Positions 26,900 to 36,739 of a DNA stretch of 64,000 bases are shown here, piece by piece; position 1 is the stretch's first letter; each line of letters begins with the position of its first letter. Where the stretch lies: assembly GCF_021028975.2 (NCBI RefSeq), contig NC_059428.1:149234001-149298000 (forward strand). The letters run 5' to 3'. The position numbers and the translations under genes were made by a program. This DNA is from Sphaerodactylus townsendi (taxonomy: Eukaryota). A model generated the notes under the pieces. That model was not told the DNA's origin. It did not search any database and saw only the letters and a list, made by a program, of their open reading frames with translations.

Positions 26900-27739
26900 G
26901 GCTAGGCTTTGGGTCAAGCACAAATCTACGTGTTGATTTCATTTATATGCCACCTTTCTGGACATGGTGCCCTGGGGTCCGGTGGATGGGGCTGCAGTCC
27001 CCCAACCCCAGAGCAGCCTCCAGGCCAGCCACCCTGGGGTCCTGGTTAGCATACTGGGGGAACTGGGGGAGCAGGTCCACCCCTGCTCTCTCCAGCCCAG
27101 TCCTTCTTACTTGGCCTAGCCCATTGTGCAGGGTTGTTGTGAAAAGAAAGGCGGGTGAGAGAAGCCGCCCAAAGCTTTCCAGAGGGAGTCAGGAAGGGCA
27201 GGCAGACCATCACAGAATGTGGAGGGTGTGAGGTGAGCGGCCTGCCTCCGTTAGCCCCAGACTGACAAAGAGGAGCCCTGCTTTGTACATGAGGCGGGCG
27301 CATGGGTCCCCGTGCTCATAATGCTGGCATGCGTCAAAGCCTGGGAGATCGTTCGCCCCAGCCCATGAATCTCAATGCCAGGCAGTTATCCCGGCTCCGC
27401 AGAACGTGGAACATCAAAGTCTGAGGAAACCCAGATCTCCTATGAAAAATGGATCAGGCTGGCGTTGCACTCAGAGCACAGCGGAGCGGCTTCGCCAGGC
27501 GCTGAGCACATGTCGGGCCCTTCCAGTGTGAGGAGGGGGCTCTCGGGTGGGGTGAATAAGTGGACTTTGAAGCTCCCAGGGAGCCACGTTCCTCAGCACG
27601 GAGACAAGGAGAGCACGTGTGAAATTCTGCGAGATATTCACCGCGAGGCTGAACAAAGCTTGGACTGTTGGCACTCTCCTGGCAGAGGGGAAGGAAAAGG
27701 GGCGAAGGTGGCACAAAACAGGCCTTGGCATTGGGAGAC

Positions 27740-28231
27740 TGTAGTCAACCCCGCAGGGTCGTCGCTAAGGAATAGGCGAGACGCGGAGGAGGTTTCATCT
27801 GGCGGAGAGCGTCAGCAACAGGAAGCGCGGGTTTTCATGATCCTGACAACTCTCCCTGTGCTGGTCTCTCGCACCTTTTATTAGGGTTTCATTGTGGGCA
27901 TGTAAAGGAGGTGGGTAGGGAGATGAGCGGGAGACCGGGAGACCTGGAGATCATCATGTGATGCATGATCTCTCCCTTACAACCCTGTGCTACGCAAGTC
28001 TTGGAGGAGAGGAGCGTAAGCGTCTGGGAGCCTAATCCCCTCACCTGAGGGGGGGCAAGAACCATTGTCCCTCGCAGCCCGGTGACTGAGCCAGAGCAGT
28101 TCATGACCAAGTGACTCATAGGGGGAGCCGAGGGAGTGGGGGGTGCTTGAAAAGCGACCAGAAATGCCGTAGGTCCATTGGCCTCCCAACGTTCTACCAC
28201 GGTGCTGCTCGGTCAGCAGTGCATCACTACA
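27740..28231 (-). repeat. ERV 3' LTR
   Basis: TG...CA ends, AATAAA on the minus strand, adjacent PPT. Confidence 0.9.
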
Positions 28232-28299
28232 TCTTCTCCTTTTTTACATTTTAGTAAAAGGGGACGATCGGGAAATGCTAAGGGGCGCATTTAAAGGGA

Positions 28300-30800
28300 C
28301 CGGCTTGTCTCCCTCCTCGGGCCATCTAGTCCAAGCTGACCAGACGCTGCTTGTGTAACATTAGAACACTTACAGCGGGGTAAAAGGAAATTCGAGGGGC
28401 TTCTTTGCACACGATTACAGGCAATATTAGACACATACTGAACGTAAAGCAAGATCCGGATCTTAACGAGGCACACACAATTAAACCAATGCAGAGCTGT
28501 TACAATAACACTCTAACCATCACTCCCGGCAGCCAATAGCTCCTAGAGAGGCTGGACCACCAATGGGAGCAAAACATCATACTCTTCAGATTATTAGATA
28601 CAACTTCTTGCAGCTCAATGTGACTTTCATATGAGATCAATTTGGGAATTATCAGAAGATTAAAACAACACATATTATTATGTACATTCTCACAACCTTG
28701 GTGATGTAATAACAATAGAAGTATTAATCAATAGCTGACATCGATTTCTTATAGAAGGTCGCTTTGACCAGAAAGTTCCTGCCTGCTCCTCGGAGGCCAG
28801 AGCGTCCAGAGCAAATGGAGGTAGAAGTGATGGGCTTAGCATGAGTGCACAGGCCAGCCGCCATTAGTCTTGGATGCTACAGGAAACAAGGTCCGGGAGG
28901 GCTCTCCCCACCAAAGGGGGAAGTTCTGCGAGGGGGGACAGGCTCCGCCTTTGGAGAGAGGCTGCACAGCGCCGCTTTCGGGACAAGGAGGGGATCGAAA
29001 GGCAGGAGCGGGAACTGGGCCAGGCGGCCGGACAGTCCGGCTCCTGAAGGGTGGAGCCTGGGGTAGCAGGAGAGTCCCGGCAGATGAGACAGGCGAAGGA
29101 AATGCAGCAATAACAAATGGGGCCAACATAACTTCAAAAACTAGGGCATGCAAATAAATTTAAAAACAGCAAAGAGCATGGCTAAAACGTATACATAGGC
29201 TGGGATGATGTATGAAGGAGAGGAAAAAAAGCAACCCGATGGTTGCATAATTGTTCAATGCATGGCTCTTGCTGTTGTTTGACTACCAAAGCTACAGAGC
29301 TGATAGCGTTACGCGAGTCCATGGATTTCTCTCAAGATGAGGGAGAGGCTACTGATAGTCTTTAGCATTGGGTAGGTTCGAAGTGATTCTCCACGAGCAA
29401 GGTTGTATGAGAGAAGGCGTGTTCCAACAATTATTCAAAGCCGGGCTGAAAACAATGGAGGAGGAAGTTCCAAGGGTTAATCTATCAGGGAATGTTCCCT
29501 GGCTGCAATTCCAAGTTTCCAGCCAGGGAGCTGCAGAGAGGGGAGAGAGATGAGTGGCTGTAGATGAGTATGAGACATGGCGACACAGCGTGGCCAACCC
29601 TTTTGGAAGGCCATAGCTGGCCCACGAATGGCAGCCTGGAGTTGCGATCTCGTGCGTGGAAGAATGGGTGTGGCCTGGTTTCCAGAGAGGTCCCTCCCAT
29701 CTTGGCCTCCAGGCTGGAGGCGACTGGCTCTCCTCTCAACAGAGCGGCTAAGGGCCTGATCCTCCAGGGAGGGGCCCACGCCTCCATCTCCTCGGATGGG
29801 GCTGGCCTGGCATGGCTATGCTGGACTCCTGTATATAGAAGAGAAAAACAGCTTAATGGCAGCTTTTCCCCAGGGGTTTTCATGCTGGCTGAGTTAATTC
29901 GTTCTTACTAGATGACAATGGAAGCCAGCCCGAGCCTTCTGGAGTGGGGGGGGCGGGTAATTTTTGATATGAGAATAGAGAAGAGTACTTTGGATATGGT
30001 CTGCTGGATGAGACCTTGGGATTGGAGTCAATAGAGAGGGGGGGAACTACTCCCCTTTTTTACGGCTTTGTTTTGGCCAAGCTTTACGTTGGCGCGAAGT
30101 TGGCTCCATTCCTACTACAACGCATCACTTTGCAACATATCTAAGGCTTAAGAGATACAAGGTAGGGAATTGCCGAAGGCTTAGGAGAAGGGAGGAGGCT
30201 ATATCCAGGGTCGGATGTTTGTTTTGTAAGAAACAATCCCACCACCGCCTAAAAGGTACTTTGCAAAGCAACTTGAACAATTCCACAATTACCTATAGTC
30301 ATATCGTAATATAGCTGCCTATAGGGAAAGATATAGAGAAGATGTAAAGAAAACAGTTCCTGGGCTTGAGGTCTGATCACAGGAGCAAATTGAGAGAGGG
30401 TTTGCAAAAGCCCCTTATCAGATCCTAGATCTAGAGGTGGGGTGTCACGTCAGCCACCATTAGAAAGAGTGGGAGGTGTGCAGAAAGGCAGGGGGGGGGG
30501 GAAGGTTTGTGTCAGCTCTACCTTCCCTTCCCTCCACGTAAGGGACTTTGGTCAGTTTGAGCTCAGCTCTCTACCTTCACAAAGAAGCGGAGGCCTGTGT
30601 AAGATAGGGTGTGGCTGAGAGACCCCCCTGGCACTGTGACCAGTCAGGGAGCCCCCAGCGAAGGGAAGTAATGGGAGCATATGAAACGATTTTGGCTTCA
30701 TATGTAAACTGCTGCACCAATGTGTGGCAAGGTAGGCTCCAGAATGGACTTAAGGAAAAGGTTCTCAAGGAGGAGGTTTGAAGAAAAGTTTTGAAGTTAG
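28300..30800 (-). pseudogene. env: Retroviral env, frameshifted; alpharetrovirus-like TM subunit
   Basis: Furin site RKRR at 28969-28980, RLACAL, NR..AID..LLLLHHQGCENVHNNMCCFNL, then a WW-containing membrane-proximal region and a hydrophobic anchor; 5' boundary approximate. Confidence 0.8.
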
Positions 30801-31599
30801 TTTAAACTAAGATGGAGGCGGCTTGAAGCAGGTCCCATCGGTATCCTGAGGAGCACGCACAGGCCAGGGTCCCATTTAAAGGCGGATGCTGTAATGAGGC
30901 TTAAGCCTTCAAGAGCATTAGCACACATAATCAGAAGGGAGAAAACTTTTAATTGAAGCACAGCAGAAGCATATATGGCTTAGAAGCAATGGTGGAAAAT
31001 CCCCCTATGAGGGGAAACTTTAGGGTCTCTTTGAAAGGGGCAAGACATACAGAACATACATAGGCATACAGAGCACATATAAAGTAATGCTTGAGGGAGG
31101 ATTGTAACTCTGATTTGAGATTTTGCTCTCTGGAGGTGCCGGACGCATCTTCCCTGCTGCCACTGGGAGCTTTGAGCTTAGGGCTTGCACAGGCTCAGAG
31201 GCTATGAGATCTGGTTTGGAACCTTACAGCTGGAGAGGGCCAAGGGGAGGCTTCTTCACGAAGGACTTTGGCTTAAGGCCATTGTGCTGAGCATCTTCCC
31301 CTTTCCATGCCTCTATTGTCCTGTGGTAGATTTGGCTATAGGGCATTCTGAGGAGGGGTCTAAATCGGTAGTCCTCTTCCGTCAGCATTCCTTTCTGCTT
31401 GCTGCAGTTCAAGACTGTGGACTCTGCAGAAGGTTTTTTGAAATGCATTCTGCTATTCTGGGGGCACCATGAGGTGCATGGTGCGGACTTGGGCGAAGGG
31501 GCTAGTAGAGCAGGAAGGATAGGCGTAGGGAATGAGCGGCAACGATTTAGAATAAAGCTGAACTTAGATTAGACTCAGAGCTGAGAGCATAGGAGGCAG

Positions 31600-31800
31600 G
31601 GTGTTCCGATTGAACTTGGCAGTTTCTGTGGTGATGTTTGTCCATACTTTGGATGTGGGATGGCTCCTCATGGCTGTGGGGCTCGATGACCCTGGGATGA
31701 TGAAGACAACCCCGTTCCAGCTGGGCGGAAGCTTTTTGGCAAGTACCAGCCCTAATGAGTTCCTCAAGTGGGGATGGGATCACTCATACAATGAGGCCTC
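31600..31800 (-). pseudogene. Degenerate retroviral dUTPase (pro N-terminus)
   Basis: SLGLVLAK..GVVFIIPG(VI) resembles betaretroviral GLILGRSS..GL.V.PGVID. Confidence 0.5.
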
Positions 31801-31949
31801 TGGAGCAGCCGAGAAGAATCTCATGGGGAGCCCGGGGAAGGGTTTGAGGTGCGGATCCTTGGTTCCGGTTGAGATGCCCGAGTAGCTGGGCCTCCCCAGC
31901 TGGGCATTGGGAGCCTTCCCGGCCTAGAGCCTCTCCTGGGGGGTCTTGC

Positions 31950-33501
31950 ATCAGGGAGAGACCCTCCTCCTGGCAATCAAAGGGTTGTAGGTCTCCGCTG
32001 GAGACAGCCTAAGCAATTCCTCCTCCGAGTCCCCGCCTGCCTAAATTGAAACTACTCGCCTGCAGGGGCTGCCTCACTTTGGCAGCGGAGAGGGCGGGCG
32101 ACTAGAAGAGCTGGGCTTGATGAGGCTGCAAAGACCCGAGACGCAGCAAGCTTGCTGAGCATGTCGGGCCCAGCTCGGGTTCCTTCCTAGGCTCTGCGGT
32201 GGATCGCCATGGCAGCACTCCCAAGCTGGAGAAGCGTGCTCCTTGGCAAAGGCGCTGGCGAGTTCGCCTCTGGGCCTCCCCGTTGTCAACCTGCCTCTCC
32301 TTGAGGGCCTCCTGAGCCCTGTCTACAAACTCAGCATAGTCAGGAGGCTTCTGAGCTGCCAGGACGCTAGAGAAAACTTTGGGTTTGGCTGCCTTCGGGC
32401 ATTGGGGACTTTTCAAAACGCCTTGTGTAGGCTTATTCAAGAGAAGCTACCGTAAAGGTGTACACCGGCAGGACGCGATCTGATGTTAGGGGTTACTGGA
32501 AGGCACTTCAAAGCCGTATAAGTTGGAGCGGTTGTGAAGCGTCGCCGAGGGCGCCCGAGGCTGCCCTGCTAAAAAGGCATTGCCGCTAACCGGGCCTCCC
32601 AGATCACAAATTATTGCCCAGGGCTCAGGAGCATGGGGAGCGCTCGCGGAAGGTGGTCTTCACAGGCGTCACCGAACCATTATGATTCCCTCCAAGGCCT
32701 TCCCTCTAGCATGCCTCTCTACAGGGGCTGGTGAGGCTTCCATCAGTCCAGACCGCTTTGGCAGGAGACTCAGTGAGGATAAAAGTTATAGCTTAAAGGG
32801 CTGGTAATTCCGGCCAAATCAGCTGAATGACGCCTTCCCTCCCCCTCAGTAATCTGTGAAGTGGACGGGGCACAATGCAAGAATCTATACGGCATCGCCT
32901 TCCGTCCAGGAACCTGCTCTTCTCTGCAGATCGCGGGCTATCACGCTCTCACGGCGAGTTTTGAAACCCGCCACGTATTGACGGAGGAATACAGTGGCTT
33001 CTCGAGGAGAAAATGAAGGTTAGCGGAGCAGGAGAGAAATGCGGCTGAAGAGCCGCTGGAGAGTTTGAATTGGGTGGAAGGAGCCTTGAGGGGGGGTAGA
33101 AGGAGGACAGGCCCAATTTAGTGGATAGAGAAAATCTCGGGCTGGAAGAATTGAAGGTGGTGACCGAAGGTCAGGGCGAAGCCTACAGCAGCGGTTTCAT
33201 AGGTCTGCAGGCTGGGATGGCTTACAGAAACATTGTCTCCACGTGTACCAGTAGCACACATCGGGCGCTGCCGGTGGCCCCAGCGCAAGAGTGCCTGAAG
33301 GAAGCGTGTTTTCCAGATCCTTAAGATTCACCGTATTACCCCCCCCAGGTACTGGGCACTATGGACACTTCGAGCTCAATCTCCTCAACCAATTTTCATG
33401 AGACTCCTTTAATAACGCTCTGGGCGATTTCAAGCATTAACGCCTTTAGTTGAGCTCATTAACGTGTTTGTCATAAAAGCCCTGCTTTGCCAAGCTCCCA
33501 T
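31950..33501 (-). pseudogene. gag: Retroviral gag, frameshifted
   Basis: GTGAGT donor immediately before ATG GGA (Met-Gly) at 33501; MHR-like KVFSSV..Q...YAEFVDR.QEAL.RQV; degenerate zinc knuckle near 32050. Confidence 0.75.
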
Positions 33502-33721
33502 ACTCACCAGTGTCAAATCCGGGTGTGAGTCATCCCTAGGCCGGACGAGTGTCTCGGACGCTATGGTCTGGATGCCGATCCAGAGGACTAGGCGACAGAA
33601 TCAAACGGTGGTCCCCTCTGGATGCTCGGATCCAGCGGGACTTCGTATCGCTGCCCTCCCCAGGCTTAATGGAGGCAGGAGTGGAGGATTCGAGGATCTC
33701 CCGGTTTGAAGCGCACCAGCT

Positions 33722-34217
33722 TGAAGTCAACTCCCCGTGAGGGTCGCTGCTAAGGAATAGAGGCTGGTGACGCCGAGGAGGTTTATCCATCTGGCTGGAG
33801 GAAGCGTCCTTAGCAACAGGAGCGGGTTTCGCTGATCCTACAACTCTCCCCCAGCTGTAGTCTGCTAATCTTTTATTAGGGCTCTCATTGTGGAAGCTGT
33901 ATGCAGCGAGGCAGGAGATGAGGCCTGGAGACTTGGGAGACCTGGAGATCATCATGTGATGTATGATCTCACCTGGCCCTACGCATGGAGAGGAGCTGCA
34001 AGCTGCCTGAGCCCCTCAATCCTCTCACCTATAGGGGCAATGAACCATTTGTCCCTGGCGCCTCGTGACTGGAGAGCTTGGAGCCCAAGACAGGGTTTCA
34101 TGACCCAGGACTCATAGGGGATGAGGAGGGGGTGCGGTGCGACCAGCAAGAGCCGTGAGTCCATTGGCGTCCCAACGTTCTACCACGGTGCTGCTGGGTC
34201 AGCAGTGCATCACTACA
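33722..34217 (-). repeat. ERV 5' LTR
   Basis: Direct repeat of 27740-28231, followed on the minus strand by a PBS-like TGGTGCG..CCGGGA. Confidence 0.88.
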
Positions 34218-34953
34218 GGAGACGACAGGAAAGTAGCCCTCGAATCAAGGCAGCCATGGCACAGGTGCAGCCCTGCTTTCAACTGCGCTGTACTCAAGGC
34301 TCAGTTTGCCAGGGAACATTCATGTGCCTCGATCACACGTTCTCCTTGTGTGCAATCCAGGGAGTGTGAGCCAGGTCAGTTTCCTTGGCAATTGTGTTCA
34401 TGTCCAGGTTGTCAACATACCGAATTCTGCACAAATCTGTCAGGCCCCAAGTCCCTGCTAAATTATTTGGCTGCAGAGTGCTGCTCCAGAACCCTTTAGG
34501 CTACCCCCCCCCCCCAGCAAGTCAGTGGCCTGTCCCTCTCAGTGCGCTGGAGCCCTGATGGTTCCCAAATCCAAAACTGACTGCCAGGAGACTCTGGAGC
34601 AACTAAAGGAGGGTCTCTGAGACAAGGAGGCTGCACCCAGGGCTCGGGCAGCGAAGCCCAAAGTTTGCCCGGAGATGTTGGACATGTGCCTTCTGTTTTG
34701 TCAAGAGAGATCCCTCTTCACAGAGGAGAGGTGAGAAAAGAATGTCAGATTTGGTAGTGGGACCCAGTCCTGAGAAATGCATTAGGGGGAGGCAAATATT
34801 GCTTCAATGGCATTAATAGTGGATCTGTTGCCACTATTAGTGGATCTGTTGCAAATGATCCAAAGACAGAATCAGAATCAGCGATCCCACTGAACGACGC
34901 ATAAGGCTGCTTTGCAAAGCCCTGTTTCTTCTGACTCCTCCAGCAACATAACC

Positions 34954-35741: not shown

Positions 35742-36189
35742 TGTAGTCGTGCCGCGAGGTCAGCGTAAGAACGAGACGAGACGCGGTGATTTCATCTGGT
35801 GGGAGGAGCGTTTCAGCAATGGGGAGCGCTGGTAGCCCAAGTTTACTCTCCTGCATGCTGGTTCTGCACCTTTATTATGATTCTAGCGGGGGCGTGTAGA
35901 AGGGCGGAACGGGGGGAATTCCGGGAGAGCGGGGGACTGAGAGATCATCATGTGATGCATGATCTCACCTGGCTGCTACGCGGGAGAGGAGCATCGGCTG
36001 CCTGGGCCTAATCTCACCTGGGGCAGCCATTGTCCCTTTGTCCGGGACACCTGGTGGTTGTGAGCCAGGTAGTTCATGACCTTTGACTCATCGGGGATGA
36101 GGGGTGGGGGAGCTGTGCGACCAGAGTCAGAGATGCCGGGTGTCAAGCGCCTATTTCACGTGTGCTGCTGTCAGCAGTGCATCCCCACA
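35742..36189 (-). mobile_element. Solo LTR related to the 27740-34217 ERV
   Basis: TGTAGTC...CCCCACA termini, 6-bp TSD GGTGGG, shared blocks (GAGATCATCATGTGATGCATGATCTC, GTCAGCAGTGCATC). Confidence 0.88.
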
Positions 36190-36739
36190 GGTGGGGAGAG
36201 AAACTGGCCCAAGGTCGGAGGTGAGAAGTCCCCAGTGGCAGGGACCACCAGGCCCAACGCTTGAACTGACGCTAGTTCTTTCAGCCACACGCCTAGGGCC
36301 AGGGGAGCATTCAATCTGAGGCTCTTCCCACGGTAAGCCCTCACAGCCATAACTCTCTGTCAATTCTAAAGGACTGGAACAGTGAGTCACATTGCCTATT
36401 GAGATTGATGGATTTCATAAACAGCTTCCGTTTACCAAGGCAAAGTTAATAATTAGCAGGAGGCAGAAAATCTATTTTAAAATCCCCCCAAACACCACCG
36501 TGCTCAAGCAGGATGTCAGGCAGGTGGTAGTCGGCAAGCAAGCGGGAGGGGCGGGGGCAGGGGCAGTTTCTGCCATTAATAGTGTGTGTGTGGGGGGGGG
36601 CAACAACCTGACATGCGGATGTCCCCAGGGCCAGCCTTCCCCCACCCTGCACTCCTCTGCTGTTCTTCCCTGAAGCACCTGTTGGTTCTCCTCAGCATCT
36701 CAAAGGAGTTTGTCCAGGTTGGCCTTAGGGACAGAAAAG

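Follow-up and report, generated by a model that had tools for sequence, protein, structure and literature searches.

The window, i.e., the whole stretch of 64,000 nucleotides that was analysed, carries a young provirus with no enzyme genes of its own which, judging from sequence comparisons, is somewhat likely to have been mobilised in trans by two other forms of its family, which would complement each other. This family of endogenous retroviruses (ERVs) is abundant (2039 and 1961 candidates at first look) and occurs in three forms. Form A encodes gag, a dUTPase-protease, and an env frame of 532 codons, and has no pol. In form B, Gag and Pol share one frame, 1596 codons at its longest, that comprises RT, RNase H, and integrase; there is neither protease nor SU. 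In form C, that of the window copy, gag is followed by a remnant of the dUTPase, by a non-coding middle part, and by the SU-deleted 3′ end of form B. The primer site is common to all three, and their Gag and LTR sequences are close. The family also joins an alpha-type envelope to a class II backbone, and the split into complementary halves is a more surprising feature than this architecture.

The provirus occupies positions 34217-27740 on the minus strand, as do all of its parts given below, and is bounded by TG...CA LTRs. The 6-bp target site duplication (TSD) reported by the initial annotation is correct; it reads GGAGAC on the plus strand, with an upstream copy at 34218-34223 and a downstream copy at 27734-27739. 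The 5′ LTR (33722-34217) and the 3′ LTR (27740-28231, with AATAAA at 27882-27877) were delimited by self-BLAST. Next to the 5′ LTR, on its inner side, lies a primer binding site of the tRNA-Phe type (33699-33718), which is noisy in the window; the corresponding 18-mer is identical among clean copies of forms A, B, and C. The gag region (32050-33501, lower bound approximate; tblastn to intact Gag, E 1e-18) has the Met-Gly start noted earlier, at 33501, followed by a beta-type matrix and a capsid, and its frame is broken by many extra bases. A dUTPase remnant had also been claimed. It was not detected directly within the window, and its approximate position, 31690-31830, is taken from clean form-C copies, which do retain 22-65% of the domain. 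In place of protease, pol, and most of env there is a middle segment (29568-31690) that is largely non-coding and holds traces of gag and of the integrase/env-leader region. The polypurine tract was read from the sequence at 28232-28245. No retroviral Pfam family matched the window's own six frames. The copy has no protease, RT, integrase, or SU, and has its LTRs, primer site, polypurine tract, and TSD; the absent enzymes, intact ends, and recent insertion are those of a non-autonomous ERV morph. A solo LTR of the same family is also present at 35742-36189, flanked on both sides by GGTGGG, and a contig of run X4 bridges the empty site there.

The TM motifs were placed by mapping the codons of a clean copy, L134, onto the window. 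The furin site, RRRRR in clean copies, is at 29014-29035, and the SU upstream of it is deleted. It is followed by an internal, cysteine-flanked fusion peptide (28849-28985; first cysteine at 28985-28983, RLAC at 28860-28849), then by a segment at 28665-28828 with the HR1 glycan sequon (28828-28820), the immunosuppressive domain (ISD, 28754-28710), and the CC loop (28694-28665), and finally by HR2, the membrane anchor, and the cytoplasmic tail (28273-28664, by tblastn to intact Env). The CC loop directly follows the ISD and reads CX7CC in the window and CX6CC in clean copies (CENVHNMCC). In the intact Env P0001, C319 and C357 flank the internal fusion peptide, are invariant in alignments, and map to the window; the P0001 SU, a region deleted in the window copy, has no CXXC. 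The letters quoted by the initial annotation (RKRR at 28980-28969, AVQPLS, RLACAL, and HHQGCENVHNNMCCFNL) are all present on the minus strand, spread across all three frames, and three of the elements, RLAC, the ISD, and the cysteine loop, are truly homologous to the TM motifs. The RKRR is not the furin site, since it overlies ordinary codons that come directly behind the first cysteine of the loop and the family's furin site is at 29035-29014; likewise, the cysteine of the quoted C..LW is not the fusion-loop cysteine at 28985-28983. Clean form-C copies (L131-L133 and L135; e.g., L132 8277-9056) display a frame of 259 codons in which a short hydrophobic start leads into the complete TM, with an altered furin site.

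The initial annotation took the frameshifts of this copy as decay; they mostly look like long-read assembly errors. Compared with L134, its nearest clean copy, the window copy displays 2.9% substitutions together with 70 extra-base and only 5 missing-base events. Over the TM region, comparison with an intact copy gave 69 extra-base versus 6 missing-base events per 721 nt, and the 19 other top DNA matches had the same bias (27-57 extra versus 1-11 missing each), while two clean copies compared with each other had zero indels in 735 nt. Uncorrected long reads typically yield such an insertion-dominated error spectrum. Short-read contigs of runs X3, X4, and X5 join position 27733 directly to 34218 with 6 shared letters, i.e., the site without the provirus. 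These joints fix the ends of the provirus and its 6-bp duplication. X3 is another sample of the same organism, its flank contig does not differ from the window over 858 nt, and run X2, from the same sample, agrees with the empty site; X4 and X5 come from two related organisms. The insertion is young, since a second sample of this organism has the site without it. Run X1 gave no empty joint, and its contigs enter each LTR end by 26 letters, where a bridge was counted only at 31 letters or more into the LTR. Runs X1-X3 carry 0.54-0.59 of the words of a test stretch that is 63% flank. At 99% likeness, half of the provirus bins have no contig, and the uncovered parts were excluded as evidence.

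The two LTRs of the window copy are only 73% alike (31 gap openings), and other genomic copies are 75-81% identical to it, values expected of an old, naturally decayed provirus, with the three forms of the family as fossils of a past infection. We consider this reading very improbable. The differences are extra bases rather than substitutions, transversions outnumber transitions between the LTRs, clean copies differ by no indel, and the provirus is missing from this site in a second sample as well as in two related organisms. Moreover, the unique flank disagrees with short-read contigs in a similarly gap-rich manner (28 gaps at 36170-36500, and 10 at 34504-34948), so that assembly noise reaches beyond the provirus. 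The insertion-dominated spectrum fits an unfixed insertion far better than an LTR divergence of 14%. Repeat copies in this assembly look far older than they are, which makes LTR dating and calls of degraded ERVs unreliable. Other irregularities of the assembly were seen as well. Kilobase-long, G-rich simple-repeat runs lie inside or beside proviruses at L046 and L061 and are probably assembly artefacts; a 3657-aa open frame at one TM match was considered as a fused polyprotein and rejected as a simple-repeat run. Several small contigs (C84, C470, C508, C666, C1504, and others) carry head-to-tail provirus pairs 5-6.5 kb apart, which may be real arrays, circles, or collapsed repeats.

The envelope remnant is of alpha type, as the initial annotation had proposed. 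The window TM, with an X at each frame break, was scored against three gamma-type, three beta-type, and two alpharetroviral TMs from IMG/VR records typed by Pfam and motifs and labelled by genus (such as MMTV-like). It reached z = 26 and 30 against the two alpharetroviral TMs. The types with which clustering had been named as speaking against the proposal scored much lower, with z of 4-5 for the gamma-type and below 2 for the beta-type TMs. A one-frame TM stretch from another copy matched only the ASLV TM in PDB (E 4e-10). For the intact Env P0001, the ASLV TM was again the best match (3e-13), followed by syncytin-2, filovirus GP2, and MLV, and no beta-type Env was found among its 49 PDB matches. 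In a tree with a beta outgroup the family TM grouped with the alpharetroviral TM (support 84/92), and against gamma types it fell within an alpha-type clade (100/100), in a mainly reptile subclade that includes Mab-Env3 (91/92). AU tests separated the groupings less clearly, with p = 0.045 and 0.22 for joining the gamma types and p = 0.145 for joining beta. The proposed grouping with ALV stands at the level of the alpha-type clade, within which the family sits in the Mab-Env3-like reptile set and not beside ALV.

The nearest named Env relatives are a protein of Anolis sagrei, proteins of Caretta, and Mab-Env3 (45% identity over SU/TM), and the nearest named relatives overall come from lizards, snakes, and turtles. 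Proteins of rabbit, owl monkey, and naked mole-rat (P0011, P0012, and P0145) belong to the same alpha-type Env family, with 36-41% identity. In three Caretta gene models (P0004-P0006), an Env of this type that carries the family's leader is joined to gag or to dUTPase-protease, which suggests that a turtle has the same backbone. According to the relevant passages of the published work, alpha-like envelopes are ubiquitous in reptiles, with several lizards, snakes, and turtles among the labels of the tree; the saurian elements with pol examined there were gamma-type (PMC13568524). The corresponding parts of PMC3758190 describe an avian gamma-type TM with an internal fusion peptide between a cysteine pair, the first cysteine lying about 9 residues past the cleavage site, and present the idea of a recombinant origin.

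The backbone displays a different affinity. Intact copies encode Gag_p10, Gag_p24, and zinc knuckles, followed in the -1 frame, behind a GGGAAAC site, by dUTPase and protease (Pfam dUTPase and RVP in the pro frame of form A). The matrix is beta-type, and class II Pol features are present (YMDD, RT thumb, and the integrase C-terminal domain). The best PDB matches were HERV-K Gag, M-PMV protease, HERV-K RT, and MMTV integrase. To judge from complementarity, the primer is host tRNA-Phe, for which matching tRNA-Phe(GAA) genes were found; the TSD is 6 bp at the window provirus and 5-6 bp at other loci. Betaretroviruses use a tRNA-Lys primer and leave a 6-bp TSD, and in alpharetroviruses the protease belongs to the gag frame, dUTPase is absent, and the primer is tRNA-Trp. 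The closest named RTs (52-59%) are those of Varanus, Naja, sea turtles, Thamnophis, and Emys. In the RT tree, rooted on a long gamma outgroup, the family and its reptile relatives fall outside the clade of alpha, bird, and mammalian beta RTs (99/99), and an AU test did not reject joining the mammalian betas (p-AU 0.29). The family is best described as class II and beta-organised, with an RT group set apart, so that membership of either the alpha or the beta genus is putative. Of the chimera proposed by the initial annotation, the pairing of an alpha-type TM with a beta-organised class II backbone is supported, and a placement of the RT inside the mammalian betaretroviruses is weakened. No reptile relative was found in the viral and metagenome contig collections.

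The family Env begins with a long, arginine-rich leader, in common with proteins of Anolis, Sceloporus, Caretta, and Mauremys. Among 20 reference viruses, whose long ORFs were searched with a profile built from seven of these leaders, only two beta-type Env leaders were matched (E 2e-11 and 2e-5); JSRV-type leaders were not. Pfam HERV-K_REC hit the leader of the Anolis relative weakly (E 5e-4, below cut-off), the family's own leader (P0001) had no Pfam or PDB match, and the ESM Atlas returned only generic env clusters with the leader. Mab-Env3 does not have a long beta-type leader. Since a beta-type, Rec/Rem-like leader precedes an alpha-type SU/TM, we infer an env swap, in which an alpha-type SU/TM would have taken the place of a beta-type one and the beta-type leader, overlapping the end of pol, would have been kept. 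The leader would then mark the swap point, which bears on the origin of alpharetroviruses. It is possible, though on the whole doubtful, that no swap took place, the alpha-type env being the ancestral envelope of a reptile class II lineage and the family a deep relative of both genera. The position of the RT outside alpha, bird, and beta retroviruses would agree with this, as would the recurrence of the same leader and alpha-type env in Anolis, Sceloporus, Caretta, and Mauremys and the alpha-type env of caecilian class II ERVs, as described in the relevant part of PMC12690878. That RT root depends on a long gamma outgroup, however, and the leader matches beta-type and not alpha Env leaders. 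In addition, alpha-like envelopes are described, in the passages concerned, as moving among gamma, epsilon, and ERV-L backbones (PMC13568524; 10.1101/2024.07.05.601823). An ancestral envelope is a question of origin only, and is compatible with complementation among forms A, B, and C.

The separation of the forms was seen across differently chosen sets of loci. Among 40 loci chosen by the RT thumb, 33 were form B, three had a protease-like region without SU, and four had protease, RT, and SU; among 20 chosen by YMDD, 19 were form B and one was intermediate. Pooled, 52 of the 60 RT loci have neither protease nor SU, four have a protease-like region and no SU, and four hold sequence of protease, RT, and SU. 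These 60 loci compare with 125 exact YMDD sites, noisy sites being additional, and with 200 protease ends of young form A by exact pattern. On small contigs lay 21 of the 100 YMDD matches listed, many in tandem pairs that may be collapsed repeats. Meanwhile, 20 loci chosen by TM match comprised 13 copies of form A, six of form C, and one mosaic. All forms include recent copies. Substitutions between paired LTRs had a median of 0.4% in form A (11 pairs, 19 loci), ranged down to 0.0% with a median of 3.7% in form B (25 of 29), and ranged down to 0.4% in form C (12 of 15). In L048 (2076-2747) and other form-A copies, an integrase-tail frame of 224 codons overlapping the env leader is open despite the missing pol.

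In forms A and B alike, the genes that the partner form lacks are under purifying selection. Pairwise Nei-Gojobori estimates on open-frame copies only (3-8 per set) gave dN/dS of 0.07-0.15 for the form-A protease, 0.09-0.32 for its SU, and 0.02-0.09 for the form-B RT. The protease remnant of B-side intermediates is relaxed, with dN/dS of 0.31-0.63. Part of this selection could date from complete ancestors. A capsid DNA tree of 53 low-gap copies split into two clades (100/100), one older and one younger, and both contain an A form as well as a B form; a single group of form B, the intermediates, and form C was rejected (p-AU 1e-5). The left breakpoint in SU, close to env residue 131, is common to older and younger B copies, and the 3′ end of form C is that of form B. 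In the RT DNA tree the younger B copies are not nested within the older ones, so form B as a single continuous lineage is unsupported by RT. Short-read polishing can blend repeat copies and thereby mimic recombination.

Based on gene content, youth, and selection, we infer that forms A and B would complement each other. Form A would supply protease and Env, form B would supply RT and integrase, and both would supply Gag. The proteins of the two forms would co-assemble, with the form-A protease maturing the RT and integrase of form B, and the mixed particles would package and copy RNA of form A, B, or C by means of the common primer site. The window copy would be a passenger in this process, and its SU-less TM segment is probably kept as a cis sequence beside the polypurine tract.

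The four apparently complete loci could instead point to a rare complete helper, endogenous or exogenous, of which A, B, and C would be ordinary defective derivatives, with Pol made from its own ATG or from a spliced RNA. Such a helper could explain the four of 60 RT loci that hold protease, RT, and SU sequence; two of them, L092 and L112, are on RT branches of ordinary length, the pol-start ATG has been retained, and helper-dependent morphs are well known, as the parts of PMC10924933 and PMC6466679 concerned with them describe. Still, none of the three that were placed in the trees falls in the young clade. L103 is a fragment without LTRs, L092 and L112 have no full 3′ LTR in the stretch read, L114 has lost the GRD motif of its protease, and L092, L112, and L114 belong to older capsid and RT clades, away from the youngest copies. 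Pure parasites, moreover, have little reason to hold SU, protease, or RT at dN/dS of about 0.1 across dS of 0.3-0.7. We treat a rare helper as a serious possibility that is nonetheless on the improbable side. L092 and L112 do carry an intact-looking protease beside an RT without visible decay, which implies that a complete helper once existed. Twenty loci were then chosen for the same junction of intact protease and RT start, and all 20 lacked RT; they represent an older subfamily of form A, pol-deleted and absent from the first RT-based sample.

The start of pol bears on the same question. In 20 of 24 loci with an intact protease, pol begins in the +1 frame, and its ATG overlaps the stop codon of pro. 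At the junction of L092, L112, and L164-L183 an in-frame stop stands three codons upstream of the pol ATG, with no -1 route, and B-side copies have pro and pol in one fused frame. A like measure on reference betaretroviruses placed pol at -1 in three of four and at +1 in one (L156). The pol-start ATG is kept in all 14 older fused-frame copies and in three intact-protease copies. The +1 arrangement may reflect an own start, a stop-restart, or a pol already cut off or dead in the A line. The +1 frame of pol relative to pro also weighs against L092 and L112 as complete helpers, yet Pol could come from its own ATG. The N-terminal Met of reptile Pol proteins was considered as support for an own start and rejected, as mammalian beta-type predictions show the same. 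In the literature searched, no report of a separately started pol was found beyond the cited precedents.

With these points weighed, we give nearly an even chance to the wider proposal of a naturally two-part retrovirus, maintained in the germ line of a reptile over at least two capsid generations as a protease/env half and a polymerase half. Gag would have been exchanged between the halves by recombination, there would be no young complete genome, and the window copy would represent a third, enzyme-less satellite. The ancestor may have translated Pol from a separate start codon, which other class II retroviruses are not known to do. If the mutual dependence of A and B is true, a vertebrate retrovirus would be acting like a segmented genome. 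No report of a complementary ERV pair with env was found in the literature searched, where the only counterpart was a proposal for a wheat retrotransposon.

The initial annotation had suggested an undescribed lineage. The architecture that it described holds, yet as a reptile case of a kind already known, reported from caecilians in the relevant part of PMC12690878, and alpha-like env is, according to the corresponding part of PMC13568524, ubiquitous in reptiles. What stands of the suggestion is that no family description of a reptile class II lineage with alpha env was found in the open papers searched. Further background is provided by the relevant parts of PMC9967133, PMC10152393, and PMC8278194. 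The pairing of beta backbone and alpha envelope, described for caecilians, now reaches lizards and turtles. The caecilian ERV-AB-Mun has a beta-type pol and organisation with an alpha env, and the family resembles it and other caecilian class II ERVs in its class II pol, separate pro frame, YMDD, alpharetrovirus-like env, and very recent copies; the caecilian elements, compared here by description only, are described in the passages concerned as intact and full-length, with no split into complementary forms (PMC12690878). The Env resembles the Mabuya-like Mab-Env3 and Mab-Env4, with 45% identity to Mab-Env3, a cysteine-flanked fusion peptide, and no CXXC, following the relevant passages of PMC13568524 and 10.1101/2021.11.05.467493. 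Mab-Env3, unlike the family Env, has no long leader and, in the account of 10.1101/2024.03.17.585361 as far as it concerns this gene, no known proviral context.

Among the classical retroviruses, ALV/RSV share the TM motifs and provide the best PDB match of the family Env (E 3e-13), whereas the family has a separate dUTPase-protease frame, a Gag_p10 matrix, and a tRNA-Phe primer. The type B betaretroviruses MMTV and HERV-K supply its closest PDB matches in Gag, RT, and integrase, and they have the GGGAAAC gag-pro slip site and a Rec/Rem-like leader in common with it; it differs from them in its alpha-type TM, in a pol that is at +1 or fused to pro and not at -1, and in its tRNA-Phe primer. IAP 1-delta-1, ETn/MusD, and the cattle ERVK C and D morphs are likewise deleted forms copied in trans, and 1-delta-1 is also a Gag-Pol fusion. 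As the relevant parts of the sources describe them, these elements need a competent full-length helper, whereas here each of the abundant young forms, A and B, is without something that the other has (PMC6466679, PMC10924933). The closest parallel to such a division is wheat RLC_famc1 (Fatima), a plant retrotransposon without env, unlike the family, in which one subfamily was proposed as the source of RT and integrase and others as that of Gag and protease; in the passages of PMC6097303 concerned, this is a proposal only.
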